A stretch of 64,000 nucleotides of DNA from Patescibacteria group bacterium (GTDB lineage Bacteria > Patescibacteriota > Minisyncoccia > Phycocordibacterales > PALSA-1337), in the NCBI GenBank assembly GCA_038064415.1, contig JBBTTD010000005.1:2149-66148 (forward strand), in the 5' to 3' direction. Made by a program: the position numbers and the translations under genes. A model generated the notes under the pieces. That model did no database searches. It had not been told where the DNA came from and saw only the letters and a list, made by a program, of their open reading frames with translations. Shown piece after piece: positions 24,237-63,518 of the stretch; the first letter of the stretch is position 1, and every line of letters begins with the position of its first letter.

Positions 24237-24293
24237 GGAGACATTCTATAACAAAAAAGAAGAATTACCAACGAAGGATATATTTTACTGCCA

Positions 24294-26963: not shown

Positions 26964-29900
26964 CTAAATATCTAACTTAAAAGTTGATCCACCAACGATT
27001 ATTCCCTCTTTTTGTATAGGTTTGAATGTAATGTCACCAAGCAAGCTCACTGATGAAATTTTCGTACTATTTTTCTCAATAAATTTTCTACCCGCATCAT
27101 CAGTTTCAATCAAAAGAATCACTTTATCATTTACGCTTAAACCTTTCTCCTTGCGCAAGTCTTGAATAGCACGAATAAGCTCGCGAACCATGCCCTCTTC
27201 TTTCAATTCTGGAGTAATATTCACATCAAGCTGTACATCTGTTTCAATCTTTGCTCCAAAGGCAATCTCTTTGACATTAACTTCATCTTTTATTAGATCA
27301 ACGAGTTGACTATTGACCATTGAACCTTGGTCATTCTTAATCCTCAAAGATTGAAGTGGTTGTCTGACATTGATCTTTGTCATCATTCGCGCCTCAAGAC
27401 CTTTGGAAGCCAGATCTCTAACCAGTTTCATACTTTTAATCAGTTCCGAGTCAACAGCACCAGCCGTCGGCCATAATTCCAAATGGACGCTTTGAATGGA
27501 GTCGCTATTTGAACCATTTATGTCATCCCTGATTTGTAATTCTTGGTTTTTGATTTTTCTGTATATTTCCTCCGCGATAAACGGCGTAAACGGCGCGAGC
27601 AACTTTGAAACCTGAAGTAAAATAAATCTGGTCGTCTCAAGCGCTGAATTTTTATCTGATTCATTATCGCCCTTGAATCGCTCACGCGACCTCCTCAAAT
27701 ACCAAGTAGAAATATCGTCGGTAAGATCCATTAGTGGCCAAGAAGCGCGATCAAGTTCACCGGATTCAAGTCCGACGGTCACGGCTGTGATAGTTTCATT
27801 CAGTCGCGCGATAATCCATTGATCTAGTACATTTTGTGATTCTACTTTTGACTTTTGACTTTTGACTTTTGACTGATCTTTATACATCTCATAAAACGAC
27901 ACGACATTTAACAATCGGTTGATCAATTTTTTTGTTATTTCATCAACCCCCTTTTCACTGAATCGCAAATCCTGCCCACGAACAACTGGTGAAGACAATA
28001 AATAGTAACGCAATGAATCCGCGCCATATTTATCAACAAGAGACATCGGATTAGGATAATTATTTTTCCTTTTTGCCATCTTCTGCCCATCTTCTGCCAA
28101 GACTAAACCATTAACAATAACTTTTTTGTATGGGGCCTTGCCAAATAAAGCCACCCCTAAAACGAGCATTGAGTAGAACCAGCCACGAGTCTGGTCTACC
28201 CCTTCCGCGATGAAATCAGCCGGATAGCCCTGCGATTTTTTGAACCAACTGGATTCTGGTTCAAATATCCGTGCGAATCTACCTTGTGTGTCCTGCGCAC
28301 TCTCAAACGGATAATGATTTTCTCCATAAGGCATAGATCCCGACTCAAGCCAGCAATCAAAGACATCTGGTACTCTAACTAATTTATTTCCTTCGGAAGT
28401 TTTTAATCCCAAATCGTCAATAAATGGTCTATGTAGATCAAGTTCATATTCGGAATTGTGTGGCAGTGGCGTGAAATCAAGTTTTTTTACTTCGGCATTC
28501 AAAAGAAATTCTTCGTGTCCACGAAATATTAGACTTTGTTCACGATTCATCCCTTGCGCCACGGTCATTAAAAGAAATCCCGGGGTCTCGTGAGTTATTA
28601 TTAGAATATTTTTGTCCTGATATTTTCGCTCCAAATCATAAAGAAAATCACCCATGCGTTTTTTGATCTCAACATAAGTCTCGCCGCCTTCTGGACTAAC
28701 TACAAAACGATCCTTGTCCGCGAATTGCTTAAAAAATAATTCAATACTTTTGCCATCCATAACGCCACTTTCCATCTCACGGATTCTATCGTCGGTACGA
28801 ATAATATTTTTGTTCCAACCAAGTCTATCGCGTAAAATTTCCATAGTATCTTGCGTACGCACAAATGGAGAAACAAAAACCAAGTCAAATTTGATGTTAC
28901 TCAATGATTTGGCGGCTTTTTCTACCTGTTGTCTACCGTTCAGTGTCAAATGATTTGGCGCCTTAGAATCTCCACTCAAAATACCTTCAACATTACTATC
29001 CGCCTCGCCATGGCGCATTATCCAATAATTATTTTTGGCCTTACTGAATTTCTTCAAATCTCCAACAGAACCCATAACATGATATCTTTCGCGTGATTCT
29101 TGAGTGTCATTTCGCGCTTTTGACTTTTCATCTTTTTCTTCCTTCCACACCGGTATCGGAGCACCCCAAAACCTAGAACGCGAAATCGCCCAATCACGCG
29201 CCCCTTCCAGCCAATTGCCAAATCGCGCCGAACCAACCTCGGGTGGCACCCAAGTAATTTTTTTGTTTTCCGCGACCAGTTTGTCTCTGATATCCGTGAC
29301 TTTCACAAACCAAGACGAGGTGGCGTAATTTAAAAGAGGCGTATCACAGCGCCAACAATGCGGATATGGGTGAACTAGTTTTTCCTTGGCAAAAAGTAAA
29401 TCTTTGCGCGCCAAAAATTTAATTATTTCAATATCTGTTTTTTGATGAGCATCTTTTTCATTTTCTGTATCTATCGGTTTGACACGCAATCCCGCGAAAT
29501 CAGTAACCTCTTTTTTGAATGTTCCGTCAATTGAAACATGTTGGACAAATGGTAAATTGTTCTTTAATGATAGGTCATAATCATCAGCGCCAAATGCTGG
29601 AGCAATATGAACAATGCCCGTACCATCTTCTGTTGTGACAAAATCCGCGCCGTAAATCTTCCAGCCATGTTCGCGATTTTTTAGATTCGGATCTCTTGAA
29701 TAATAATCAAAAAGTGGTTTGTAGGATTTGCCAATTAATGATAAACCTTTGAAAGATTCAACAACTTCGTATTTTTTGTCCTTCAGCACAGAAAGTTGAT
29801 TTCTTGCGAGAATGAAAAACTTGGATAAATTAGTTATGTCGTCAATAATTCTAATCTTCACATAATCAATATTGGTACTGATTGCCAAAGCCACATTCCC

Positions 29901-30620
29901 TGGTAGAGTCCAAGGTGTAGTTGTCCAAGCAAGGATATATGTGCCCGGTTCATTTATAAGTTCAAACTTGGCAGTAACTGAAATGTCCGTAATATCCTTA
30001 TATCCCTGCGCAACCTCAAAGTTTGACAATGTCGTTTCGCATCGCGGACACAAATTCATTAACTTGAATCCCTCATAAATCAAACCTCTGTCATGCAACC
30101 GCTTGAAAATCCACCAGACTGTTTCAGTGTAACTTGCGTCCATGGTGCGATAATCATGATCCATGTCAACCCAACGCCCCAAGCGAGGCACGATTTTACG
30201 CCATTCATCAGCATAACGCATTACACTTTCGCGAGCCGCCTGGTTAAATTTCTCAATGCCATAATCAACTATCTCTTTCTTACTTTTCAGACCAAGCTCT
30301 TTTTCAACCAGATTTTCCACCGGTAAACCATGGCAATCCCAACCCCATCGTCTTTCAACATGATACCCTTGCATTGTTTTCCAGCGTGGAATTGTATCTT
30401 TGATTATTCCAGCCAAAATATGACCGTAATGTGGCAGACCGTTGGCAAAAGGCGGACCATCATAAAAAGTGAATTTACCATTAGTTGATTTTTTCTCTAG
30501 AGACTTCTCAAAAATACCCCTCTCTTTCCAAAAGGCTAATATTCGTTCTTCGCGCTCGGCATGAGTTGATTTTTTGTTATTTTCTTCTGGATTAACCATG
30601 AAATGTATGGGTTGAATCAT
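26964..30620 (-). CDS. ileS: Isoleucyl-tRNA synthetase carrying an inserted histidine-phosphatase (PGAM-like) domain
   Basis: 1218 aa. HIGH (PHYGH), WTTTPWTLP, WAISRSRFWGAPIP, KMAKR (KMSKS-like). After the PIPVW motif, residues ~493-725 (nt ~28446-29144) form an extra domain with RHG signature IMRHGEADSN, FVSPFVRTQDT and ITHETPG. Confidence 0.93.
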   Translation of the reverse strand: MIQPIHFMVNPEENNKKSTHAEREERILAFWKERGIFEKSLEKKSTNGKFTFYDGPPFANGLPHYGHILAGIIKDTIPRWKTMQGYHVERRWGWDCHGLPVENLVEKELGLKSKKEIVDYGIEKFNQAARESVMRYADEWRKIVPRLGRWVDMDHDYRTMDASYTETVWWIFKRLHDRGLIYEGFKLMNLCPRCETTLSNFEVAQGYKDITDISVTAKFELINEPGTYILAWTTTPWTLPGNVALAISTNIDYVKIRIIDDITNLSKFFILARNQLSVLKDKKYEVVESFKGLSLIGKSYKPLFDYYSRDPNLKNREHGWKIYGADFVTTEDGTGIVHIAPAFGADDYDLSLKNNLPFVQHVSIDGTFKKEVTDFAGLRVKPIDTENEKDAHQKTDIEIIKFLARKDLLFAKEKLVHPYPHCWRCDTPLLNYATSSWFVKVTDIRDKLVAENKKITWVPPEVGSARFGNWLEGARDWAISRSRFWGAPIPVWKEEKDEKSKARNDTQESRERYHVMGSVGDLKKFSKAKNNYWIMRHGEADSNVEGILSGDSKAPNHLTLNGRQQVEKAAKSLSNIKFDLVFVSPFVRTQDTMEILRDRLGWNKNIIRTDDRIREMESGVMDGKSIELFFKQFADKDRFVVSPEGGETYVEIKKRMGDFLYDLERKYQDKNILIITHETPGFLLMTVAQGMNREQSLIFRGHEEFLLNAEVKKLDFTPLPHNSEYELDLHRPFIDDLGLKTSEGNKLVRVPDVFDCWLESGSMPYGENHYPFESAQDTQGRFARIFEPESSWFKKSQGYPADFIAEGVDQTRGWFYSMLVLGVALFGKAPYKKVIVNGLVLAEDGQKMAKRKNNYPNPMSLVDKYGADSLRYYLLSSPVVRGQDLRFSEKGVDEITKKLINRLLNVVSFYEMYKDQSKVKSQKSKVESQNVLDQWIIARLNETITAVTVGLESGELDRASWPLMDLTDDISTWYLRRSRERFKGDNESDKNSALETTRFILLQVSKLLAPFTPFIAEEIYRKIKNQELQIRDDINGSNSDSIQSVHLELWPTAGAVDSELIKSMKLVRDLASKGLEARMMTKINVRQPLQSLRIKNDQGSMVNSQLVDLIKDEVNVKEIAFGAKIETDVQLDVNITPELKEEGMVRELIRAIQDLRKEKGLSVNDKVILLIETDDAGRKFIEKNSTKISSVSLLGDITFKPIQKEGIIVGGSTFKLDI

Positions 30621-30673: not shown

Positions 30674-31093
30674 TTACCCATCGGCGTGAAGACTTAAGTT
30701 GTTATGACGAATATTGGTAACTATTGTCCTACAGATTTCGATTTTAGCTAAATCATCGCCAAAATCAGGTATGCGCAGAAACAATTGTATACCGTTCGGT
30801 AGATTCTGGTCGTCTGAATCAAAAGCTTGAAGTTCAAGATACATTCGCCCACTATGGCTACTAAATTGGCCTGAAGGATCGTAAACCCGTAAAGAAGCAG
30901 AGCGAGTAAATTTACCAATCGGATTGTGAATATTTGGCATGATTATTACCCATAACGTTCCGGTCGGATCGACGGATTTCTTTATTGGGGAACAATACCC
31001 TTGCTGTAGCAATGTCTTTGTCTCAAAAAATTTGAAACACGCCGTCAGTTCTTCATACCAATTGCAAAGGGCTCGAACATAATCAATCTTCAT
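30674..31093 (-). CDS. Hypothetical protein
   Basis: 139-aa ORF, no recognisable motif. Confidence 0.45.
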   Translation of the reverse strand: MKIDYVRALCNWYEELTACFKFFETKTLLQQGYCSPIKKSVDPTGTLWVIIMPNIHNPIGKFTRSASLRVYDPSGQFSSHSGRMYLELQAFDSDDQNLPNGIQLFLRIPDFGDDLAKIEICRTIVTNIRHNNLSLHADG

Positions 31094-31175: not shown

Positions 31176-32963
31176 CTACATCTTCTTCGGGACTTTTATC
31201 CCCAAAATCCACAACCCATTTGTCATCGTGGTCAAAAATGCTTGCGTCAAAGCCAATCTATACGAAGATTGAGGATCTTTCTCGTCAATAATAGTTTGAA
31301 CTGCATAATAATTATTGAAAGCTCCAGCCAGATTGACCAGATAGTTTGCCACCTGTTGAGGTGAATATTCTTCTCTGGCACGCTCTACAATATCTGGAAA
31401 TCTGAAAATCAATTTTTCCAATAATGTAACTTCGCTTGGTATGCTTTCATTTTGAATCTTGAATCTTGAATCTTGAATCCTTGCCTTTTCTAACACTGCC
31501 GCCGCCCTGACCGCCGAATATTGCAGATACGGTCCCGAATCTCCTTCAAATGAAATAGATTTAGTTGAATCAAAAATAACATCACCGCCGATTGATTGAC
31601 GGAGAATTGTGTATTTGATCGCGCCGATTGCCACAATGTCAGATATTTCATTTTTGTCCGTCAGACTCAATTCGCGAACGGCGATTTTTTTAGCCACCAA
31701 TTCGCGAATATCCTCAAGTAATGACTCTGCCGAAACAATATTACCTTTTCTGGACGACATCTTTCCTGAAGAAAAACGAAGAAGACCATGTGAAATGTGT
31801 TTGGTTTTCGTGAAAATGTTTTGATCAATTAATGAAAACGCTTTCAATAATACTTTGAAATAATCACCTTGTTCATTCGCCGTAACAATAATTGACCCGT
31901 CTAAATCCGGATATTTCTTGAACTTCTCAATATTGAGACCAATTTCTTTGGCTTCATAAGTTGGCAATCCTTGAGAGGTGATGAAAACACGCGTATGTAG
32001 ATCATAATCTTCACCTTTGAAAATTATAGCACCCTCGCTTTCGGTAAATACTCCCTTTTTAATAAATTCACGCACAACCTTTACACCATCGGTGGCGACT
32101 TCACTCTCAAAGAAAAACTGATCAAATTTCGTGCCAAGTCGCTCGTAAATCAAATCGAAATATTCCAAGCTCCATTTTCGACCCTGTTCATATATTTCAT
32201 TGATTTTGGGATCGGATTTCCCAAATATCTCCTTGTTAATCATGGCAATTTCCTTCTGCGCGGTAGCATCATCATCAAATTTTGCCCCATAAACATACAT
32301 TTCACCCAACCATTTTACTTTTTCGGTTACTGTCTTCTCTCCAATCCCTAGTCTCCAATTTTCAAATCCTTGTTTCTTCAGTATCGCCCAAATAGTTTTC
32401 GCCACATGCAATCCGACATCGCCTTGATAACAAGCACGAATGACATTACCGCCAGAAGATTGGATTAATCGTGAAATTGATTCACCAACCGCATTAGACA
32501 TCAAATGACCGATATGAAAAACCTTGAAAGGATTCGGGTCAGTATACTCAACCATTATTTTTTTACCAGAATCGGAATTATTCCAACCATACTCTTTCCC
32601 ATTTTTTGCAATCGTCACAACATTTTCTGCAAAAATTTTATCTTTGATTTTGAAATTTATGAATCCGGGACCGGCAATGGTGATTGATTGAACAAAATCC
32701 GGTTGTCCTTTTTTTAGTTCAACAATAATCAACTCCGCCATTTCTTTTGGATTTTTAGGAATTTTCGATTTTTCAATTACCCAAGAAATTTTCCCGATAT
32801 GAGAATCGACTAAACCTGCAAATTTTTTAAAGGTAACCATAGCCACATTACTGGAAAAATCTCCATGATCTGGATTTTCCGGATACTCTAAAGTAAAAGA
32901 TGTCTCGGTTATGCCGAGTCTATTTAGAGATTTGATTATTTGACCCTGAAGCTTTTCCTTCAT
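31176..32963 (-). CDS. argS: Arginyl-tRNA synthetase
   Basis: 595 aa. HIGH motif (FHIGHLMS) and C-terminal DALR anticodon-binding domain. Contains an in-frame (GATTCAA)x4 microsatellite at 31447-31478. Confidence 0.92.
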   Translation of the reverse strand: MKEKLQGQIIKSLNRLGITETSFTLEYPENPDHGDFSSNVAMVTFKKFAGLVDSHIGKISWVIEKSKIPKNPKEMAELIIVELKKGQPDFVQSITIAGPGFINFKIKDKIFAENVVTIAKNGKEYGWNNSDSGKKIMVEYTDPNPFKVFHIGHLMSNAVGESISRLIQSSGGNVIRACYQGDVGLHVAKTIWAILKKQGFENWRLGIGEKTVTEKVKWLGEMYVYGAKFDDDATAQKEIAMINKEIFGKSDPKINEIYEQGRKWSLEYFDLIYERLGTKFDQFFFESEVATDGVKVVREFIKKGVFTESEGAIIFKGEDYDLHTRVFITSQGLPTYEAKEIGLNIEKFKKYPDLDGSIIVTANEQGDYFKVLLKAFSLIDQNIFTKTKHISHGLLRFSSGKMSSRKGNIVSAESLLEDIRELVAKKIAVRELSLTDKNEISDIVAIGAIKYTILRQSIGGDVIFDSTKSISFEGDSGPYLQYSAVRAAAVLEKARIQDSRFKIQNESIPSEVTLLEKLIFRFPDIVERAREEYSPQQVANYLVNLAGAFNNYYAVQTIIDEKDPQSSYRLALTQAFLTTMTNGLWILGIKVPKKM

Positions 32964-33045
32964 GTATGCATTCTAGCAAATAAGCCATCTTTTTCACAGA
33001 AAATTTGACAGTTTTTAGAATTTATTTATTAAACAAAAAAACTAT

Positions 33046-33401
33046 TGACAAATAAGGCAATATCGGTTATATTCGTTCTAGACATGTGGAGCTTTGTTTG
33101 GGTCAGCTTCACTGCGTGAACTCGCGCGACAAGTGCTCCCTCTCCGGAGCCTCTAGCGCGACCATGCTAAGGAAAGAACTCCGACAAGAAGTTCACTTCT
33201 AATTCAGACGATGAATCGGTTCCTCGAGACATCTGGAGGTCCATGACTATCCTCCATCGCCGTCGCCGACGGCATCTTGCATGTCAATTGTCTGAAAGAA
33301 GACCTCAAATACTCCCTTGCGTCCGCGGTGCTTGTGCTACACCATCGCGAGGGAGTACCCACTTTTTAGCGCGGTTTGTTTAACCGCGCTTTTTTAATTT
33401 T
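33046..33401 (+). ncRNA. Candidate structured non-coding RNA (~320 nt) with own promoter and terminator; identity unknown
   Basis: Consensus promoter TTGACA-17nt-TATATT at 33046-33076. GC-rich ORF-free body with many local hairpins. Intrinsic terminator GCGCGGTT-TGTT-AACCGCGC plus T-run at 33369-33401. Confidence 0.4.
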
Positions 33402-34626
33402 TAACACCCTTCAAAATCCGATCAATTCTCTTTGCGATGATCATAAAGTCTTTTTCTTTTTTACCCCTAGTCGTTTCAGCGGCAGTACCTAGACGAATAC
33501 CCGATGGATCAGTGGGTGGTCGGGCATCAAAAGGGATAGCGTTCTTATTTACGATAACTCCCTCTTTTTCTAGCGCGTCACTTGCGATCTTTCCGGCAAC
33601 AGCTCCAGCACCTTTTTCATTCTTTTTGCCACTCATCCAAGTATCAATCAAGATCAAATGTGAATCTGTCCCGCCAGAAATTATTTTCCAGCCATATTTT
33701 TTTAATTCTTCAGCTAGAATCTTCGCGTTTAATTTGACCTGTTTTGCATATTTTTTGAATGCTGGACTATTGGCTTCTTTCAGAGTGACTGCCACAGCCG
33801 CGATTTGATTGGCGTGTGGGCCTCCCTGCAAACCCGGAAATACCGCTTTGTCTATTTTCTTATCTAAATCCAAAGGTTTTCCAGTAGAATCATTTTTATT
33901 TTTCTTGGAAAAAATCAAAGCCGAGCGTGGTCCACGCAATGTTTTATGGGTTGTGGTTGTGACAATGTCAGCATACTGAAAAGGCGTCGGGTATTCCCCG
34001 CCCGCGACCAAACCGGCAAAATGCGACATATCTACCATTAGTAAAGCGCCACTTGCATCAGCTATTTCGTGAAATTTCTTAAAATCAACAAATCTTGGAT
34101 AAGCAGTAAAACCAGCCACAATAATATTCGGCTTTTCTCTCAAAGCTATTATTTTAAGGTCATCATAATTTAAGATTTCAGTATTTTTATCAACGCCATA
34201 TGGAATTTGAGTCCAAAACTTTCCAGTGGCTGAAACTTTGTGGCCATGAGTCAAATGTCCGCCTTGATCTAGAGACATACCCATAATTTTTTCTTTAAAT
34301 GGGACAAGCGCTAGATATACCGCCAAATTTGCTGGCGAACCGGAAAGTGGTTGGACATTGACATGCCAATCATTTGAATCTAGTTTGAAAAGTTTGAGGG
34401 CGCGTTGTTTGCACAATTCTTCAAGCTTATCAATATTCTCATTACCGCCATAATATCTAAGCTCAGAATACCCTTCGGCATACTTATTGGTCAGTTCTGA
34501 ACCAAGCGCTGTAAGCACATCTCTGGAGACATAGTTTTCCGAGGCAATTAGATTTATCGCCTTCTTTTGGCGCTTTTTCTCCGCTTGAATTAGTTTTTTT
34601 ATTTGTATGTCTTTCATGTGAATCAA
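33394..34626 (-). CDS. glyA: Serine hydroxymethyltransferase
   Basis: 410 aa. PLP-lysine region THKTLRGPR and conserved SHMT N-terminus. Confidence 0.93.
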   Translation of the reverse strand: MIHMKDIQIKKLIQAEKKRQKKAINLIASENYVSRDVLTALGSELTNKYAEGYSELRYYGGNENIDKLEELCKQRALKLFKLDSNDWHVNVQPLSGSPANLAVYLALVPFKEKIMGMSLDQGGHLTHGHKVSATGKFWTQIPYGVDKNTEILNYDDLKIIALREKPNIIVAGFTAYPRFVDFKKFHEIADASGALLMVDMSHFAGLVAGGEYPTPFQYADIVTTTTHKTLRGPRSALIFSKKNKNDSTGKPLDLDKKIDKAVFPGLQGGPHANQIAAVAVTLKEANSPAFKKYAKQVKLNAKILAEELKKYGWKIISGGTDSHLILIDTWMSGKKNEKGAGAVAGKIASDALEKEGVIVNKNAIPFDARPPTDPSGIRLGTAAETTRGKKEKDFMIIAKRIDRILKGVKN

Positions 34627-46144: not shown

Positions 46145-46171
46145 GGTTGTTAAATTATAGCAATCAACACT

Positions 46172-54873: not shown

Positions 54874-55692
54874 TTATTCAGCCGACACCCTGAAGAACTT
54901 TTGAGGAACCGTGTCCAATGAGATGAGATTCAACGGAAACGAATACGAATTTGTATTAGCCCCTGGGTTACTTAAGCTCCAGTTCGTTGCGATCGGCACT
55001 CCGTTCGTATACCACACTTGCAATATACTAGCCGAACTTATCCATCCAGTTATCGAACACTCCTTCTGCCAGGTAACAGGATCGGCCAGGTTTGTGGTTG
55101 ACATTATGGTTGAAGCCATAAGAACAGTGTATGGCACTCCTAGCGGGTCATTGAACGCGCTGTTTGTCCTGGAGTATTCATAGATATTCCACATGTTTAC
55201 TCCAGTGGAAGCAGAATTCCACGATCCTCCATTTGTATCACCTGGGTTGCCGAGATAAAACATGATGCCAGGGAAGTCACCGCTCCCTGTCTGGGCTTCG
55301 TTAAGCTGGATCATCGCGCTTGCGCTGTGGTTTGTGTTCGTCCCCGGGTTAGGCGGAGGCGGGGGAGGGCTGGGTGGAGGAGGAAGAAGCTTGTCACAGA
55401 GCTTTTTCAAACCCCTGATGAGAATATACCCCACAACGATGATGACGGCAGCAATGGCAACGGCGTCACCGTATCCGCAAGAAGGTATTACATACGTCGG
55501 TGATATCGTTGAATTCAGACCGACATCTGTTCCAACAACATCAGTTGCCTCCGAGGATGGGGACGACCTTTCGATGATGGTCGCGTTTGTCGTTCCTTGA
55601 GCATGCATGGGCGACAGTGTCGCCATAATGCCCACAAGAAAAACGGTCACGACCTGACATTTCAGCGTCTTGGTGAACTTGAGCGTTTTCAC
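54874..55692 (-). CDS. Secreted/membrane hypothetical protein with polyproline linker (PPPPSPPPPPPNP)
   Basis: 272 aa. Signal peptide, TM segment, Pro-rich linker, Asn/Ser/Thr-rich C-terminal domain. Locally elevated GC. Confidence 0.55.
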   Translation of the reverse strand: MKTLKFTKTLKCQVVTVFLVGIMATLSPMHAQGTTNATIIERSSPSSEATDVVGTDVGLNSTISPTYVIPSCGYGDAVAIAAVIIVVGYILIRGLKKLCDKLLPPPPSPPPPPPNPGTNTNHSASAMIQLNEAQTGSGDFPGIMFYLGNPGDTNGGSWNSASTGVNMWNIYEYSRTNSAFNDPLGVPYTVLMASTIMSTTNLADPVTWQKECSITGWISSASILQVWYTNGVPIATNWSLSNPGANTNSYSFPLNLISLDTVPQKFFRVSAE

Positions 55693-56960: not shown

Positions 56961-57036
56961 TGGGGGTGCCCAGCGGGAATCGGACCCGCAACGCCAGTTC
57001 CACAAACTGGGGTTTTACCACTAAACTATGGGCACC
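56961..57036 (-). tRNA. tRNA-His (anticodon GTG), CCA encoded
   Basis: Cloverleaf: acceptor GGTGCCC/GGGCACC, anticodon loop TTGTGGA, T-stem GCGGG/CCCGC, 3' CCCCA. Confidence 0.8.
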
Positions 57037-57210
57037 ATATAACAAACTGTTGTGCTAAACTAAATTACTAATATGTCGGCGCTTGCTCATTTATACCAGA
57101 TTTATGGTTACTTAGTCGAGCTAACGCATAGAACGACGACGATCTATTGAGAAACGCGATCGTCATGACCGGTACCCTATTTCGTGTCCACTTTATGGGG
57201 TCCAGATCAG

Positions 57211-57294
57211 TGCGCAGGAGAGGAATCGAACCTCCATACCCGAATGGGCGCTACCACCTCAAGGTAGTGCGTCTACCAGTTTCGCCACCTGCGC
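57211..57294 (-). tRNA. tRNA-Leu (anticodon GAG), long variable arm
   Basis: Acceptor GCGCAGG/CCTGCGC, anticodon stem-loop CTACC-TTGAGGT-GGTAG, T-loop GGTTCGATTCC, 84 nt. Confidence 0.8.
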
Positions 57295-57393
57295 ATTTTT
57301 GCTTAAAAATAAATCTACTAACTCTAGTAGATCTTCATCATATCGGAAGATTGATTTATTTTCTAGTATGGCTAGGGTTTTAAGCCCTAAATT

Positions 57394-57816
57394 TTAAACC
57401 TTAACGGGCTCCTCAACCTTTGGGGCTTCAGGGCTTTCAACAATTACTTCTTTATCTTTAACACTCAAGATGCGTCTCATTTGGTGACGAATTTCTTTTG
57501 CGGCCTTGCGACGAATGAAATAAAGCTTGGCGCGACGAACTTTTGAGCGACGAACGAGTTCAACTTCATCAATCATTGGAGAATAAAGCGGAAATGTGCG
57601 CTCAACTCCAATGCCACCGACAACTTTGCGAACAGTGAATGTCGCGCCAGCTTCACGACCGTGTTTATGAGACAAAACTAGTCCTTCAAAAGCTTGAAGG
57701 CGAAATTTGCCTTTATCTTCTTCAATCTTCTGCCAGACACGAACCAAATCGCCTGAACGAATATCAAGATTTTTACGCTCTTTCAGATCTACGGGAGTTA
57801 TTACCTTGGTTGCCAT
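57394..57816 (-). CDS. rplS: 50S ribosomal protein L19
   Basis: 140 aa. L19 signature (RSGDLVRV...[18 protein letters not shown]...RRAKLYF). Confidence 0.92.
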
Positions 57817-57876
57817 AGTGGGAGTACATTATCATAGCAAAAGAAAATACTCAAGGAATAAATTACTAAGACTTGA

Positions 57877-58758
57877 TTATTCATGCTTAATTTTAATCCC
57901 AAACTTCTTACGGGCCTTCTCAAAATCTTTCGGCAAAGGTGCCTCAACTTTGACATGTTTCCCCCCTAAACTCTCAAATTCTATAGATTGAGCATGGAGT
58001 GCGGTACGCTTGAAACCAAGTGCCATTGGCCTTTTGGGAGCATAGAGGGTATCTCCTACAACGGGATGGTTAATTGCCATAAAATGAACTCTGATCTGAT
58101 GTGTCCTGCCTGTTTTTGGTTCAACTTCAACTAATGAAAACTTCTCCATTTCTCCATTCAATTCATTGTGAGTTTCCGCTGGGGCCCGCTCTTTACTCCA
58201 ATCGGGGGCAGGAATGACAAAAGAGGCTAATCTAGTCCAATATGTTTCCGCCTCACGCATCTCACCACGAGCCCCTCTCTGTGCCGACCATTTGCGAAAA
58301 TCAGAATTACTTCTGCCGATCGGCCGACTGATGGTTCCAAACTCTTCATCAAGTTTGCCCCAAACAAAAGCTAGGTATTTTTTTATCATTGCCCGATCTC
58401 GAAATTGTTTCTTTAAATTAGCATGTCCTTCAACTGTTTTAGCAATCACCAAAACCCCAGAAGTTTCTCGATCAAGTCTATGAACTATTCCTGGACGAAG
58501 TATCGGTGTGCCATCAGGTGTGCGTGTGTGTTCCCCAACATTTGCAGTATCAGGAAATTTTTTAATGATCCAATCGGTCAGAAATGGTCCGGAGTCACGA
58601 CCATCTGGATGAATGATCAGTCCAGCGGGTTTGTTGATTACTACGCAATCATCATCCTCATAGAGAATTTCAATTTTGGGTATTTTTAGCAATTTATTGC
58701 TCATTACATGAATATACGCTAATCTAAGATAGTTCACAAGAAATTTATCCATGCGCAA
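57877..58758 (-). CDS. RluA-family pseudouridine synthase
   Basis: 293 aa. Catalytic HRLDRETSGVLV motif and KPAGLIIHP. Confidence 0.88.
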   Translation of the reverse strand: MRMDKFLVNYLRLAYIHVMSNKLLKIPKIEILYEDDDCVVINKPAGLIIHPDGRDSGPFLTDWIIKKFPDTANVGEHTRTPDGTPILRPGIVHRLDRETSGVLVIAKTVEGHANLKKQFRDRAMIKKYLAFVWGKLDEEFGTISRPIGRSNSDFRKWSAQRGARGEMREAETYWTRLASFVIPAPDWSKERAPAETHNELNGEMEKFSLVEVEPKTGRTHQIRVHFMAINHPVVGDTLYAPKRPMALGFKRTALHAQSIEFESLGGKHVKVEAPLPKDFEKARKKFGIKIKHE

Positions 58759-58803
58759 TTAGCTGTTTTGGTAGGTATCAAATGGAATTGACAATACATA
58801 CAT

Positions 58804-58879
58804 GCGCCCTTAGCTCAGTTGGTAGAGCAACCCATTTACACTGGGAAGGTCAGGAGTTCGAATCTCTTAGGGCGCACCA
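58804..58879 (+). tRNA. tRNA-Val (anticodon TAC), CCA encoded
   Basis: Acceptor GCGCCCT/AGGGCGC, D-arm TAGCTCAGTTGGTAGAGCA, anticodon loop TTTACAC, T-loop GGTTCGAATC. Confidence 0.88.
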
Positions 58880-58881
58880 AA

Positions 58882-58916
58882 ACCAAAAATCTTCCTCTCG
58901 TGGGAAGATTTTTGGT
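58882..58916 (+). terminator. Intrinsic terminator after tRNA-Val (ACCAAAAATCTTCC...GGAAGATTTTTGGT)
   Basis: 14-bp perfect stem with an embedded U-tract. Confidence 0.6.
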
Positions 58917-58946
58917 TACTCAATTTTGTGAATTTGTAACTTACAC

Positions 58947-59315
58947 CTACATCTGCGGTGCAGATGAGGAAACAGAACTTCCCTTTGAACTAAATCCGAC
59001 AATTGCGACGACAACACCTACAATGAGGTAGACCCAGTTTGTCGCGGAATCAGTGACAAAAGCTCCAAACAAAACTGAACTTCCTTGGACCAAACCAAGA
59101 ATCGCGATTACCACATAGATAATTCCAACCGTCTTCAGGGCGGTTGCTACTGAAGGTTTTGAAGCTAGAAGTAGTAATACTATACCCACAATGATATGAA
59201 CAATGCTACTCAAAGCATCCGCGACAATAAAGCCGAGAACTGGAGTAGCAAAAAAGCCCCAGATACCGACAATCACAAAGATGACACCCAAGACAAAAGA
59301 TAATGTTTTTGCCAT
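58947..59315 (-). CDS. Small 4-TM membrane protein (DUF4383-like)
   Basis: 122-aa highly hydrophobic ORF. Confidence 0.55.
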   Translation of the reverse strand: MAKTLSFVLGVIFVIVGIWGFFATPVLGFIVADALSSIVHIIVGIVLLLLASKPSVATALKTVGIIYVVIAILGLVQGSSVLFGAFVTDSATNWVYLIVGVVVAIVGFSSKGSSVSSSAPQM

Positions 59316-59420
59316 ATTATTTTACTATTAATTTATAATGCCATTGACCAACTATATTATATGCTGTATTGAGATATTAGAAAACAGGACAATCCACAGG
59401 TCGTTTTGTTCACTTAACTT

Positions 59421-59470
59421 GTCCCCTCGGTTGGAATCGATCAACATTCACGGCTTTTATGTTCCTGTGG
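59421..59470 (-). pseudogene. Degenerate partial copy of the tRNA-Arg 3' half
   Basis: GTCCCCTCGGTTGGAATCGA identical to the 3' acceptor/T-arm of tRNA-Arg at 59496-59567, then diverges. Confidence 0.5.
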
Positions 59471-59495
59471 AGTATCAAGTGCTTACAAATTCTTG

Positions 59496-59567
59496 TCCCC
59501 TCGGTTGGAATCGAACCAACATCGACGGCTTAGAAGTCCGCAGTTCTATCCATTGAACTACGAGGGG
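59496..59567 (-). tRNA. tRNA-Arg (anticodon TCT)
   Basis: Acceptor CCCCTCG/CGAGGGG, D-stem GTTC/GAAC, anticodon loop CTTCTAA, T-arm GTTGG-TTCGATT-CCAAC. 72 nt, no CCA encoded. Confidence 0.75.
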
Positions 59568-59603
59568 AAATATTCAAAATACTAACACAAATTGCTTAAA
59601 ACC

Positions 59604-59637
59604 GGCTTCATGTCCGCAGTTCTATCCATTGAACTAC
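59604..59637 (-). pseudogene. Exact duplicate of the 5' 32 nt of tRNA-Arg (acceptor 5' strand through anticodon stem)
   Basis: GTCCGCAGTTCTATCCATTGAACTACGAGGGG repeated 36 nt upstream of the intact gene. Confidence 0.55.
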
Positions 59638-59712
59638 GAGGGGTCATCATATTGATAACTAAGACACAATAACCGACAACCAAACAACACACAAGTCCAT
59701 TGTTTGATTATT

Positions 59713-60057
59713 TCACAAAGACGGATCAGACATACGCGCGCTTCCTTGAATTATATTCGTTCTTTCCGTACCGCGATTATTAAATTCCTTTAATATTTTA
59801 GAAAGAGAATTAGAGTTAAATATCGTATTGGACTTGAACTCCGAACTTGATTCTGGTCGCGACAATCTATCACTAATTTTACTATAAGCGATATACCCAA
59901 GAACTACGAAAACCCCAGATACGATTGAAGAGATGACGATCAATAACAACCAACCAAGATAAGGGTCAGTCAATACCCGACGAATGAATGGGTCGCGATG
60001 ATCCCTGGAAGAGGTGTGTCGGCGAGAATGATGTCGCGTAAAAGAAAATATAGGCAT
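59713..60057 (-). CDS. Hypothetical single-TM protein (possible pilus-assembly accessory)
   Basis: 114 aa. Basic His/Arg-rich N-terminus, one TM. Directly downstream of a PilO-like gene. Confidence 0.4.
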   Translation of the reverse strand: MPIFSFTRHHSRRHTSSRDHRDPFIRRVLTDPYLGWLLLIVISSIVSGVFVVLGYIAYSKISDRLSRPESSSEFKSNTIFNSNSLSKILKEFNNRGTERTNIIQGSARMSDPSL

Positions 60058-60071
60058 GATTTTATTATATG

Positions 60072-60629
60072 TTAATTCGCGTCATGGATAGTTGTGGCTT
60101 TGAGGACAAAAGACAGATTCCACTCTCTAGAAAGATTTTTTGGATCTGACGAACCTGAAGAGTTGAGACGAACATTACTTATAGAAATTTTGTAAGGAAG
60201 CACCTCGGCTAACATCAAAGTTCTTATAACCGCCGACCAAGATCCTTGGACTTGCACACCCGCATTGATAAAGCCAAATTTGCCATTTTGGCCACTAGGA
60301 TCAATGCTATCAATAGACGAGAGCACGACTCTACTACCAGTACGACCACCGAGAGATTCAATGGTCTCTATAAAAGAAACCGTATCTGAATCTTTTACAA
60401 AAAATGAAAAAACACTAGCACGGTCTGTGGCTGTTTTTTCATATAAAGATGTTAACTCTTTTTGTTCTTGTTTGTATGATTCATTTTTTGCTAATGTACT
60501 TCTAACAGTCAGTGCGTCTGCAAGTGAGACATTGACGCGATAATTCATATATCCGTAAAGCGTATAGACAAAAAGCGTGACGGAGAACGCGATAATTAGC
60601 AAAGCTATGTGATTATGATGCCTCTTCAT
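60072..60629 (-). CDS. PilO-like type IV pilus assembly protein
   Basis: 185 aa. N-terminal TM then periplasmic domain. Position after PilM- and PilN-like genes; 4-nt overlap with the upstream ORF. Confidence 0.5.
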   Translation of the reverse strand: MKRHHNHIALLIIAFSVTLFVYTLYGYMNYRVNVSLADALTVRSTLAKNESYKQEQKELTSLYEKTATDRASVFSFFVKDSDTVSFIETIESLGGRTGSRVVLSSIDSIDPSGQNGKFGFINAGVQVQGSWSAVIRTLMLAEVLPYKISISNVRLNSSGSSDPKNLSREWNLSFVLKATTIHDAN

Positions 60630-61168
60630 TGTAAAGATTTAATTACTTTTAACGAAAATGAGATATCTTTGTTTTTAGCCAATCCAGAGATAGGCAGATC
60701 GACTTTATTGCCTTTGTTCAGAGTCTCCAACCTAGTCTTAAATGAAATCAACGATTCGCGAGTCGGGGCAGTGCCTGACAAAAAAATCGTGGCCGTGGAA
60801 GTTGAAATACTTTCAAACCTGATGGAATCAATTGAGATTGGTCCGCGAGCACTGGTGATTTGTTCTATCAGATCAGAATAACGTATTGATGAAAAACTCT
60901 CTGAAAGAGAATTAATCAATAACATATCGGAACGCAATTCTTTTTCAATCCCTAAAATTTCGCTTATGTTTTTATCTTTTCCCGACGAAACAATGGTATC
61001 GTTTATTGAACTCCCCTCAATGTAGACATAAATATAAGCTGGAAAAAGAGAGCAGACACCGACCAGTCCAGTGGCCGCCAACAAAAATAAAGCAACAACG
61101 GCAATATGATAGAGATACTCTTTTTTGAATATTTTCTGCTCTTGAATTGGTAGGAAACTATGTCGCAT
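60626..61168 (-). CDS. PilN-like type IV pilus assembly protein
   Basis: 180 aa. Short cytoplasmic N-terminus, one TM, periplasmic domain. Follows the PilM-like gene. Confidence 0.55.
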   Translation of the reverse strand: MRHSFLPIQEQKIFKKEYLYHIAVVALFLLAATGLVGVCSLFPAYIYVYIEGSSINDTIVSSGKDKNISEILGIEKELRSDMLLINSLSESFSSIRYSDLIEQITSARGPISIDSIRFESISTSTATIFLSGTAPTRESLISFKTRLETLNKGNKVDLPISGLAKNKDISFSLKVIKSLQ

Positions 61169-61180
61169 AAAAGTACTTAA

Positions 61181-62149
61181 TTATAAAGCCAATCCCGCGG
61201 CGATGGCATACTCAAGTGATTGCGCTTTGGTAATCGCGGGAATATATTTATTGATATTAAAAGCGTTGTGCCAGACATCAGGAAGAGCGCTCCGTGGAAT
61301 TATTTCACTATTTTGATTACGAATCAGAGATTCGCATTCCTTGGCGCGAGAACCGACGACAATCACTTCTGATATATCGGAATGCACATCGCTACGCGTG
61401 GTCCAATATGAATAGACTTTGTTGATCTCATTCATTATGGTATTTATTGAAAAATCGGAGATTTTTGTCAAAGGAATCTCGTCACTACCCCATGAAATCG
61501 TAGACGTAAAACAGACTACTCCTTCAGAAACAATATAAAAGCCGGTTTTCTTTTTCATAATATGTACGACAAGCTGGGTACTGTTGGAATTGTGAGAGAC
61601 ATATGAAAGTACAATTGACTTTGGTACTACCTCAAAAGCAACGGGAAACGCGCCGGTGGCGCGAATAAGGGCGACATAATGCTCAATATATGTTCTTGGC
61701 ACAACCGAAACGCTGGCACGAAGTAAATTACCGACTACGGTTTGCGGCATAAGATCAAATTGGAATAACGCGTCTGGAGCGGAAAGTGGAACATTTTGAT
61801 CCAATTTGAATTCAATGTTTTGAGCAATTGATTTAAAATCTAAACTCTGAACATCAGTCTGAAATAAATAGGCCTTTTCTTCTGGAATAGAAACCTTCAC
61901 ATACAAAAGATTATTTTTTGCGATAAAATCCGACAGGATAGTAGAAAATTCTTTTTCATCCTTGATTTCTCCGTTTTCCACAAGACCAACGGGAAATTCT
62001 TGGCTGGCGAACTTGGAAATGGTCAATCCATGATAATTTCTGCGATATTCAATACACCTGATTCCATCATCGGATATGTCCAGACCTGCGTGTTGCATGA
62101 CCAGAAACGCTGGGGGCGGAAAGAGTTTGAAAAATAACGAGCTTTGCAT
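61181..62149 (-). CDS. pilM: PilM-like type IV pilus assembly protein (actin-like ATPase fold)
   Basis: 322 aa. N-terminal AGLDISDDGIRCIEYRR resembles the PilM/FtsA phosphate-1 motif. Confidence 0.65.
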   Translation of the reverse strand: MQSSLFFKLFPPPAFLVMQHAGLDISDDGIRCIEYRRNYHGLTISKFASQEFPVGLVENGEIKDEKEFSTILSDFIAKNNLLYVKVSIPEEKAYLFQTDVQSLDFKSIAQNIEFKLDQNVPLSAPDALFQFDLMPQTVVGNLLRASVSVVPRTYIEHYVALIRATGAFPVAFEVVPKSIVLSYVSHNSNSTQLVVHIMKKKTGFYIVSEGVVCFTSTISWGSDEIPLTKISDFSINTIMNEINKVYSYWTTRSDVHSDISEVIVVGSRAKECESLIRNQNSEIIPRSALPDVWHNAFNINKYIPAITKAQSLEYAIAAGLAL

Positions 62150-62269
62150 GCTCTAATTGTAACGCAAAAATTGAGAAATATGAAATCTATACCCACATCG
62201 CTCGGCAAATATCTTGATTTTTCAAGCCCGCGGAAACTCAGTGGACGATTTGGCAAAATATTTGCCAAG

Positions 62270-62890
62270 CTATTTAAGTCTCTTTAGACCCTCCTTAAAT
62301 ATCTCCTTCAAGGCCGGGGCGGCGGAAGTCAAAATAATTATTATAACTATTGGAATAACATAGCAATCTGGATTTGGAATAAGTGCTCCAAGTCCATATC
62401 CAAGCCATAGCATGAGCCACGTCCAAAGGAAACCACCGATAATATTAAAAGCAAGAAATGTTTGATATTTCATTGTGCCAATCCCAGCCACGATCGGCGC
62501 AAATGTCCTTATGATGGGAATAAAGCGTGATAAAATAATCGTTTTTTTGCCGTACTTTTCGTAAAAATGTTGAGCACGAACTATATACTTTTTGTTAAAT
62601 AACAATGAATCTTCGCGAGTAGAGAGCGCGGGGCCAATTTTCTTTCCAAAAGCATATCCGAGTGAGTCCCCGATCACTGCGGCTAGAAAAGTCCCAATCA
62701 ATAGCCAAGAAAATGACACATAACCTTGTGAAGCCAGGAATCCGGCGGTAAATAAAAGTGAGTCTCCGGGAAAAAAGAAGCCAAAAAATAATCCCGTTTC
62801 AATAAAAATTATCAAAATCACACCTAGAGTACCGAGGGTGGTGATTAAAATTTTTGGTTCAAGTAGAATTTGAAAGAATTCGGTAGTCAT
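62270..62890 (-). CDS. DedA-family (VTT/SNARE-associated) membrane protein
   Basis: 206 aa. DedA signature region FIETGLFFGFFFPGDSLLF...RFIPIIRTFAPIVAG. Confidence 0.85.
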   Translation of the reverse strand: MTTEFFQILLEPKILITTLGTLGVILIIFIETGLFFGFFFPGDSLLFTAGFLASQGYVSFSWLLIGTFLAAVIGDSLGYAFGKKIGPALSTREDSLLFNKKYIVRAQHFYEKYGKKTIILSRFIPIIRTFAPIVAGIGTMKYQTFLAFNIIGGFLWTWLMLWLGYGLGALIPNPDCYVIPIVIIIILTSAAPALKEIFKEGLKRLK

Positions 62891-63271
62891 TTAATTTTTT
62901 TGTCTATCCAGATAGCTCTGTAATATCAACGCCGCCGCTGACGCATCACTCATATTATTCTTACCTTGAAATCTTTCAGCTTGAACACTGGTCATAAATT
63001 CTAATTCCAAATAAACAATAAATCCGACCTTCTCTAATTCTTTTTTGAATTCATCGGCTTCTTCAAAAATAGCATTTGGTTGCTGTCTATAATTGCGCGA
63101 CTCTCCTATCACAATTTCTTTGACCTCGTGTTGTTTCGCGATCTCTATTATTTCTTTCACCGCCACATCACTATTTTGCACAACTACCAAAGGTAAAGCG
63201 AACTTGCGTGATTCGTCAGAGACCGCGACTCCGATTCGCTTTGTGCCGTAGTCTATTCCGAGAATTTTCAT
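62891..63271 (-). CDS. ruvX: Holliday-junction resolvase-like RuvX/YqgF
   Basis: 126 aa. MKILGIDYGTKRIGVAVSD N-terminus typical of YqgF/RuvX. Confidence 0.88.
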   Translation of the reverse strand: MKILGIDYGTKRIGVAVSDESRKFALPLVVVQNSDVAVKEIIEIAKQHEVKEIVIGESRNYRQQPNAIFEEADEFKKELEKVGFIVYLELEFMTSVQAERFQGKNNMSDASAAALILQSYLDRQKN

Positions 63272-63378
63272 AACTTAACAATATCATACAATTATCATAA
63301 ATGTGTTGCGAAACAACGGTTTTTCCTTTATGATTGGGAAACTGATTTGCCTAAGCTAAATTGAGTAAGGCTAAACAG

Positions 63379-63468
63379 GGATGGGTGCCGGAGTGGTCTA
63401 ACGGAACAGTCTTGAAAACTGTCGTCCTCGAAAGGGGACCGTGAGTTCAAATCTCACCCCATCCGCCA
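63379..63468 (+). tRNA. tRNA-Ser (anticodon TGA), long variable arm, CCA encoded
   Basis: Acceptor GGATGGG/CCCATCC, anticodon stem-loop ACAGT-CTTGAAA-ACTGT, T-arm GTGAG-TTCAAAT-CTCAC. Confidence 0.85.
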
Positions 63469-63518
63469 TTGATCTATACTATTCACACCATAAAAATAAT
63501 TAATGCTATAATTGTCCT

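Follow-up and report, generated by a model that had tools for sequence, protein, structure and literature searches.

A structured RNA gene between glyA and argS in Parcubacteria-group bacteria: an RNA family absent from Rfam, with a single invariant motif

The orphan structured non-coding RNAs of bacteria brought to light by comparative genomics of the Breaker and Weinberg type, such as the raiA motif RNA, OLE, ROOL and GOLLD, have their own promoter and intrinsic terminator, are GC-rich within AT-rich genomes, fold into several helices that carry compensatory changes, are restricted to particular lineages, and have functions that are not deducible from sequence. A gene with these same traits is located between glyA and argS in a 64-kb stretch of contig JBBTTD010000005.1 of a Patescibacteria group bacterium (the window hereafter), and the RNA it encodes, the glyA-argS RNA, is an addition to this broad class. 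It differs from the named RNAs in having no sequence or structure match in Rfam 15, in its hosts (Parcubacteria-group bacteria of the candidate phyla radiation, CPR), in its length of 88-335 nt, in carrying one short invariant element, and in its fixed position between glyA and argS. A second set of described RNAs, RsaE/RoxS, LhrC and RNAIII with their UCCC-loop hairpins, shares with it a pyrimidine-rich, invariant and unpaired loop element, a 3' terminator, and a seed far more conserved than the scaffold; by comparison, the invariant element of the glyA-argS RNA is longer and includes GGUU, and its scaffold is much larger and under structural selection. We found in the literature no description of an RNA in the glyA-argS intergenic region and no regulatory or structured RNA specific to CPR/Patescibacteria. 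On balance, we think it probable that the gene encodes a stand-alone small RNA of a new, lineage-restricted family, that the invariant element is its recognition site, and that it is likely to act in trans.

The gene is delimited by signals on the plus strand. A sigma-70-type promoter, with TTGACA (33045-33050) and TATATT (33068-33073) separated by a 17-nt spacer, scored 11 of 12 matches and ranked first in a scan of 2.5 kb; at the other end, AGCGCGGTT-TGTTT-AACCGCGCT (33368-33390) followed by TTTTTT forms an intrinsic terminator with a clean 9-bp stem and a U6 tract. Both elements had been recognized, 1-3 nt off, in a preliminary description of this region made from the sequence alone. The start site and 3' end of the transcript were placed from these signals. 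The preliminary description was also right to call the region GC-rich against an AT-rich genome (0.52 over the predicted transcript, 0.385 in its flanks, 0.406 in the window) and devoid of a coding sequence: the only open reading frames (ORFs) within it are of 38 and 46 aa, neither of them conserved. The predicted RNA folds better than its dinucleotide shuffles: z is -5.1 at full length and -4.0 once the terminator is left out. The locus is thus, as first described, a stand-alone structured non-coding gene on the plus strand, divergent from argS. The RNA is probably expressed.

Conservation could be traced by gene order. A search with the single RNA sequence (nhmmer) returned identical copies only, and homologues were therefore located by synteny, the order tmk-glyA-gap-argS-ileS being conserved in related loci. 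These loci (given L numbers here) came from a genome scan, from a metagenome scan with ArgRS alignment, and from contigs of ArgRS homologues. The identical ArgRS protein was present on contigs from Hainich groundwater metagenomes; the closest genomes are metagenome-assembled genomes of the Patescibacteria/Parcubacteria group, including one of Taylorbacteria. Sixteen distinct RNAs bearing the motif described below were found at the same position and in the same orientation in the glyA-argS gap of Parcubacteria-group genomes and metagenome contigs (the window, L004, L005, L006, L007, L008, L010, L012, L014, L016, L021, L025, L038, L089, L091 and L092), their genomes encoding ArgRS proteins 50-71% identical to that of the window. 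The RNAs range in length from 88 nt in L014, a minimal member made up of the motif-loop hairpin and the terminator, through 169 nt in L012, to 335 nt. All 17 syntenic RNAs have a -35 TTGAC(A/T) and a -10 box (9-11/12) in the common context TTGACAAA...GGTTATAnT. In most homologues the RNA starts AGAC or AGAU, some 6 nt past the -10 box, and in every one it ends in a GC-rich hairpin and a U-run. No ORF is conserved among them; L012 and L014 are without any ATG-started ORF of at least 20 aa.

Selection on the secondary structure was assessed with the RNAs of L010 and L091, which are 88.8% identical. Their RNAalifold consensus contained five double compensatory changes, while the null averaged 0.83 and reached 4 at most in 200; its retention of 12 of 12 changed pairs is circular, the null also reaching 100%. 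Because of that circularity, we relied instead on a test in which the structure was predicted from one sequence and the effect of the other's substitutions was then scored. Thirteen pairs were touched by substitutions: 12 were still paired, five of them through double changes, and one was broken. Random substitutions with the same transition/transversion spectrum broke 8.6 pairs on average and produced 0.37 doubles, and none of 5000 null replicates matched either observed value. The outcome was the same whether L010 or L091 served as the structure source. When the reverse complements were tested, 7/13 and 3/15 pairs were kept (P = 0.11 and 0.95). Since the test passes on the plus strand and fails on the minus strand, it fixes the strand of the gene independently of promoter and terminator. 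Compensated pairs fall in P2, P3, P4, P6, P9 and the terminator (helices as in the table), with two double changes in the homologue of P2, two in P4, one double and one wobble change in P6, and three pairing-preserving changes in P9. The secondary structure is under selection, on the plus strand. Comparison with related genomes, which the preliminary description had named as a check on its proposal, showed conservation in 16 syntenic RNAs, with 12 of 13 changed pairs kept between L010 and L091.

Evidence from the wider family is in keeping with this result. A P4-type helix of 8-12 bp, of different sequence in each case, was found in seven members; it spans 82-104 nt and ends 0-5 nt before the motif (family-level Fisher test over 13 sequences, p = 2.3e-3). 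Most members beat their shuffles on the plus strand (z about -2 to -4.4), and relative to shuffles the plus strand folded better than the minus strand in 14 of 17; raw fold energies failed to separate the two strands. A covariance model built from the core of L010 and L091 only (model R1) matched the window once, at 33195-33310 with E = 0.012, and matched L004 at the homologous place; its reach extends to these two, and its alignment of both is imperfect. Alignments made with MAFFT, of the full RNA or of the core, misplaced hairpins. Because alignment of the distant members is unreliable, the counting of compensatory changes is based on the L010/L091 pair and is not family-wide.

Apart from the terminator, the k-mers common across the family all belong to one motif: GUUCCUC in 16 of 16 members, GGUUCCUC in 14 of 16 and CGGUUCC in 12 of 16, with no others. 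By inspection of the predicted folds, this motif is always unpaired, in a large hairpin loop or a junction strand, and its surroundings vary: UCGG-UUCCU-CCGA in L010, GUUG-GUUCCUCACCA-CAAC in L089, a loop of 13 nt in L014 and, in the window, a weak 4-bp stem (UCGG/UCGA) that displays it with UUCC as the loop. The motif appears to be the functional element of the RNA. It is not over-represented in the window, where 10 matches with at most one mismatch were observed and 10.5 expected. The window has both features by which we recognize the family at a single locus, a promoter-to-terminator unit between glyA and argS and an unpaired (G)GUUCCUC inside P4; the third, compensatory structure, comes from L010 compared with L091. 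A second conserved element, CU-rich, is located in the linker that follows the core. We considered a pseudoknot between this linker and the loop of P1, in view of complementarities noted by eye (GGGUC/GACCU, AGGUU/AACCU and UGGGUAUU/AAUAUCCA), and rejected it (Fisher p = 0.39). L005 and L007 each have a 10-bp duplex between P1 loop and linker, in a topologically equivalent place.

The structure of the window RNA listed in the table was obtained by imposing P1, P4 and P6 from homology; it folds at -117.8 compared with -119.8 for the minimum free energy structure, a cost of 2 kcal/mol. By inspection, P1 reads ACGGAGC/GCUUCGU in L010 and L091 and GUGGAGC/GCUUCAC in the window and L004, and a hairpin of different sequence occupies the position of P9 in the homologues. 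A sequence similar to that around P3 (..AAGAAG..CGACAGAAG..CUUCUAA) is present in L004, L010, L091, L006 and L016. Three hairpins had been quoted in the preliminary description. One of them, GCCGTC-GCC-GACGGC (33259-33273), is P8; the other two are not conserved pairings. The arms of TTCAC-TGC-GTGAA (33108-33120) fall in separate helices, GCUUCAC pairing with GUGGAGC in P1 and GCGUG with CAUGC in P2, and the segments of the supposed long-range duplex, GUGCUCCCUC (33133-33142) and GAGGGAGUAC (33349-33358), pair locally instead, in P2 and P9.

Table. Coordinates of the glyA-argS RNA, its predicted structural elements and its neighbours in the window
Feature	Position	Strand	Remarks
Predicted transcript	33080..33397	+	about 318 nt, 52% GC; starts with AGAC 6 nt after the -10 box and ends in the terminator U-run
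P1 hairpin	33086-33093 / 33105-33112	+	GUGGAGCU / AGCUUCAC; G-rich loop UUGUUUGGGUC
P2 composite hairpin	33114..33167	+	GCGUG/CAUGC, UCGCGC/GCGCGA, GCUCC/GGAGC
P3 hairpin	33176..33194	+	core GAACU/AGUUC; purine-rich 5' flank GGAAAGAAC; 3' flank CUUCUAA
Core domain closed by P4	33203..33296	+	UUCAGACGAU (33203-33212) pairs with AUUGUCUGAA (33287-33296)
Invariant element	33216..33225	+	UCGGUUCCUC; inside the P4 domain, between P4 and P6
P6	33228-33232 / 33281-33285	+	GACAU / AUGUC; encloses P7 and P8
P7	33234-33239 / 33251-33256	+	UGGAGG / CCUCCA; inside P6
P8	33259-33264 / 33268-33273	+	GCCGUC / GACGGC; inside P6; hairpin at a conserved position
Linker	33297..33309	+	AGAAGACCUCAAA, with the second conserved CU-rich element (A/G)ACCUC; by inspection AAACCUCUA, AAACCUCA and AGCCUCAA in relatives
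P9 long hairpin	33310-33321 / 33346-33357	+	UACUCCCUUGCG / CGCGAGGGAGUA; apical GGUG/CACC
Intrinsic terminator	33368..33396	+	perfect 9-bp GC-rich stem AGCGCGGUU/AACCGCGCU, loop UGUUU, U6; abuts the stop codon of convergent glyA
argS (arginyl-tRNA synthetase)	31176..32963	-	divergent neighbour; Pfam Arg_tRNA_synt_N, tRNA-synt_1d, DALR_1
glyA (serine hydroxymethyltransferase)	33394..34626	-	convergent neighbour; Pfam SHMT
Candidate target site in glyA mRNA	33661..33672	-	GGGACAGAUUCA, codons G-T-D-S of the SGGTD motif; complementary to UGAAUCGGUUCC of the RNA

No known RNA family accounts for the gene. When the whole window was scanned with cmscan against 4227 Rfam 15 families at gathering thresholds, five tRNAs were the only result. 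A scan of the immediate surroundings of the gene (32950-33450) with permissive filters and E <= 10 gave nothing beyond weak alignments that owe their scores to the P9 stem and the terminator; the highest reached 19.9 bits compared with a gathering score of 46. Rfam searches at E <= 5 on loci L004-L007 gave no match in the glyA-argS gaps holding the homologous RNAs, spurious terminator-driven alignments aside. ARAGORN found five tRNAs in the window and no transfer-messenger RNA (tmRNA). The family is not represented in Rfam 15, and the comparison with Rfam for which the preliminary description had asked has therefore yielded no significant match to a known family. The five tRNA genes are clustered at 56961-63468 (His-GTG, Leu-GAG, Val-TAC, Arg-TCT and Ser-TGA); a 3' CCA is encoded in those for His, Val and Ser and not in those for Leu and Arg.

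The strong promoter, the high GC content and a size near that of RNase P RNA or tmRNA had suggested a universal housekeeping RNA, in a form so divergent in CPR bacteria that Rfam models miss it; the candidates were RNase P RNA, tmRNA, signal recognition particle (SRP) RNA and 6S RNA, and none of the four occurs elsewhere in the window, which cannot by itself exclude the idea. The preliminary description had noted that the motifs of RNase P, tmRNA and SRP RNA are lacking, and neither Rfam, at gathering thresholds or at E <= 10, nor ARAGORN found any of these RNAs. For RNase P RNA of type A or B, there was no match to RNaseP_bact_a/b in the window or in L004-L007, and the P4 strands GGAAAGUCCGG / ACAGAAnCCGGCUUA are not among the conserved k-mers. 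For tmRNA, ARAGORN and Rfam gave no match and no conserved ORF could encode a tag peptide; for SRP RNA, Rfam gave no match to the 4.5S (Bacteria_small_SRP) or the large form, and the sole conserved motif is GGUUCCUC, a signature of none of the four RNAs. 6S RNA offers a parallel in outline: like the glyA-argS RNA, it looks abundant, stands alone and has a strong promoter of the sigma-70 type. In some bacteria 6S RNA is linked to a folate-metabolism gene (ssrS-ygfA in Escherichia coli), a link that can be likened to the glyA neighbour here. Unlike 6S RNA, however, whose roughly 180 nt make up a single extended hairpin opened by a large central bubble, the glyA-argS RNA is a series of hairpins and a closed multi-helix core; it has no Rfam match, is of the wrong and a variable size (88-335 nt), and is absent in close relatives. 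Nor does a string of hairpins resemble a domain IV hairpin, with its symmetric and asymmetric loops and GNRA tetraloop, a tag ORF combined with a tRNA-like domain that has a T-arm and CCA end, or a core with a P4 pseudoknot. Patchy presence and a fourfold range in length argue against any of these RNAs in disguise and favour a lineage-specific, fast-evolving RNA. The housekeeping proposal based on size and promoter strength is not supported, given that range and what the site holds in the close relatives L096 (no gap), L093/L094 (a protein gene) and L090 (an RNA without the motif), and we find a divergent universal RNA barely credible; of the two options left by the preliminary description, a divergent version or a novel RNA, the novel one is favoured by the lack of an Rfam match and the patchy family.

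A cis-acting element could take two forms: an argS leader of T-box-like kind, read from the minus strand, or a riboswitch that produces RNA antisense to glyA by read-through. Aminoacyl-tRNA synthetase genes often have structured leaders, and the RNA is found between glyA and argS in every genome that carries it; read-through past the terminator would be antisense to glyA. The glyA-argS RNA adjoins a synthetase gene just as do the tRNA-mimicking operator of E. coli thrS and the T-box leaders, and its UUCCUCA loop has a superficial likeness to an anticodon loop in which CCU would be the Arg anticodon. It differs from them in being divergent and on the opposite strand. The selected structure is on the plus strand only, opposite to the argS strand, and in all 17 RNAs the promoter and the U-run are on that strand and point away from argS. 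In addition, a -10 box belonging to argS itself (TAGAAT) precedes the ATG by 7 nt, so that argS is apparently leaderless. Rfam searches of both strands gave no T-box, even at E <= 10, and no riboswitch. A riboswitch or other cis leader would be followed by a gene on its own strand, and here the next gene, glyA, is convergent. Antisense read-through into glyA is formally possible, against a terminator that is a perfect 9-bp GC-rich stem with U6. Overall we regard a cis element as very improbable. Mimicry of tRNA was rejected by inspection: the family has no conserved closing stem that would leave a loop of 7 nt, and a pyrimidine would occupy position 37.

No gene lies downstream of the RNA on its own strand, and glyA converges on it; a role in trans, not in cis, is thus the most likely. 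The sequence of events that we propose is as follows: a strong constitutive promoter and Rho-independent termination would yield a small RNA, which would fold into a row of hairpins (P1-P3), a closed core in which P4 surrounds P6, P7 and P8, the long hairpin P9, and the terminator. Its working part would be (U)CGGUUCCUC, invariant and single-stranded, which the core holds in its large loop or junction; the remainder would be a fast-evolving scaffold that presents and stabilizes it. The exposed (U)CGGUUCCUC may then pair with a transcript carrying GAGGAACC(G), or it may bind a protein.

One candidate transcript is that of glyA itself. The loop would pair with the glyA mRNA at the codons of the catalytic-site motif S-G-G-T-D (GGN GGN ACN GAY), where a second GAGGAAC site was seen to recur, and block elongation or trigger decay. 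The reverse complement of the element UCGGUUCCUC reads GA-GGA-ACC-GA; the invariant bases of the element stand opposite codon positions 1-2, and the bases opposite third positions, G, U and U, are capable of wobble. Such a small RNA would be aimed at an immutable coding sequence, in a genome that seems to offer neither ribosome-binding sites nor mRNA leaders as targets, with wobble-capable G/U opposite the synonymous third positions, so that the seed would tolerate codon drift. Pairing is perfect over 11 nt in L010 and reaches 11/12 in the window, including one G.U (UGAAUCGGUUCC with GGGACAGAUUCA). The SGGTD site is the best conserved complement in glyA and argS taken together (mean 8.64/10) and falls in the top 0.03-5% of sites in 14 of 15 genomes, and the RNA gene adjoins glyA in every case. 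The site was picked out post hoc, however; several genomes have about 8 of 12 pairs, with third-position mismatches, and their duplex energies (-6 to -14 kcal/mol) do not improve on those of the best chance sites in argS; and invariant 10-mers, random or shuffled, match this level of conservation in 10-13% of trials. Because that null gives P = 0.10-0.13, we keep the glyA target as a hypothesis and not as a result, and we judge regulation of glyA, wobble-tolerant seed included, to be unlikely. A broader form of the idea, in which the RNA is either a riboregulator aimed at the glyA S-G-G-T-D codons or, through its scaffold of about 300 nt, the RNA subunit of an undescribed CPR ribonucleoprotein (RNP), seems to us a similarly long shot.

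Masking of ribosome-binding sites is the mechanism that RsaE/RoxS, LhrC and RNAIII would suggest, their CCUC elements covering the GGAG or GAGG of Shine-Dalgarno (SD) sequences. The anti-SD sequence of 16S rRNA is CCUCC, which the UUCCUC motif and the ACCUC linker resemble; several other tracts of the RNA are CU-rich, and a sub-threshold LhrC alignment was obtained (18.8 bits compared with a gathering score of 110; E = 2.7). That alignment stems from the terminator and the P9 stem, however, and the invariant GGUU would have no role in SD pairing. Where RsaE/RoxS, LhrC and RNAIII pair with SD sequences, the window offers none: GGAGG/AGGAG precedes 0 of its 51 ORFs of at least 150 aa, and GAGG, AGGA and GGAG are at background frequency. 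Masking is disfavoured because the genome appears to be without SD sites and to use leaderless mRNAs, and we rejected the anti-SD model as most improbable. A TAnAAT box resembling a -10 element is present 6-8 nt before the start of many genes (for example at 32964-32990 for argS, 24237-24258, 46145-46166 and 63497-63518), which suggests that leaderless mRNAs may be widespread in this genome.

Several observations weigh against a trans-acting RNA with the invariant element as its recognition site. In the close relative L096 glyA abuts argS and there is no gap; in L093 and L094, also close relatives, the gap holds an ORF of about 170 aa and no RNA; and in L090, a close relative, a 221-nt promoter-to-terminator RNA at the same site lacks the motif. 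Since L090 is motif-less and the other three loci are RNA-less, the role of the RNA is dispensable or replaceable. Within the window, the 10-nt motif has a single exact complement (54902-54911), which runs antisense to the ORF that contains it and is compatible with chance, and tRNAs offered no convincing pairing, with 4 bp only for tRNA-Leu(GAG) and, for tRNA-His, an 8-bp match that lies in a strand of the anticodon stem. The chance level of the glyA complementarity given above counts here as well. Finally, the covarying scaffold exceeds the needs of a simple seed-pairing small RNA and leans toward a protein or RNP role.

Beyond the core of the family, the glyA-argS gap is variable. The distant relatives L013, L015 and L018-L020 have small RNAs with degenerate CU-rich motifs. 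In L013 and L015 the place of the one large RNA, 560 nt upstream of argS and on the minus strand of these loci, is taken by two small units in succession, each with a promoter and a terminator, which suggests turnover or splitting of the locus. In some relatives the RNA gene is flanked by short repeats, GC-rich and either inverted or direct (L091, 1-60 and 400-460; L005, 5900-5960; L020), for example CCTAGGCGAGGCCTAGGCCTCGCCTAGG in L091 and GGAGGTGCCACCTCCGGAGGTGGCACCTCC in L005, and these may be small mobile or palindromic repeat elements. The gap ORFs of L093 (857-1375, minus strand) and L094 (833-1342, minus strand) encode proteins of 169-172 aa that are 56% identical and match no Pfam family; their promoter is oriented like the RNA promoter. 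A decayed gene at this site was considered and rejected, as the ORF encodes a real protein and shows no residual similarity to the RNAs. A pattern scan of viral contigs, outside synteny, gave 119 matches, estimated to be within the range of chance, and the covariance model confirmed none among the 80 loci listed. As far as sampled, the family is confined to a subgroup of Parcubacteria-group (CPR) bacteria.

Farther neighbours of the gene in the window are ileS and tmk. The ileS product (26964-30620, minus strand; 1218 aa) has a histidine-phosphatase domain (His_Phos_1) inserted between two tRNA-synt_1 segments, an insert kept across related Parcubacteria loci, including L089, L093, L094 and L096. 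Between argS and ileS is an ORF of 139 aa (30674-31093, minus strand) without a Pfam match; a small ORF of variable size occupies this slot in several related loci too. The ORF that contains the antisense copy of the motif complement (54874-55692, minus strand; 272 aa) has an N-terminal signal-like segment and a PPPPSPPPPPPNP tract, the complement being near its 3' end.

The glyA-argS RNA provides a defined entry point to RNA-based regulation or RNP biology in CPR bacteria. Its role would inform on post-transcriptional control in genomes that lack SD sites and use leaderless mRNAs. If the link to glyA were true, it would be a small RNA tied to one-carbon metabolism in organisms with minimal biosynthesis.

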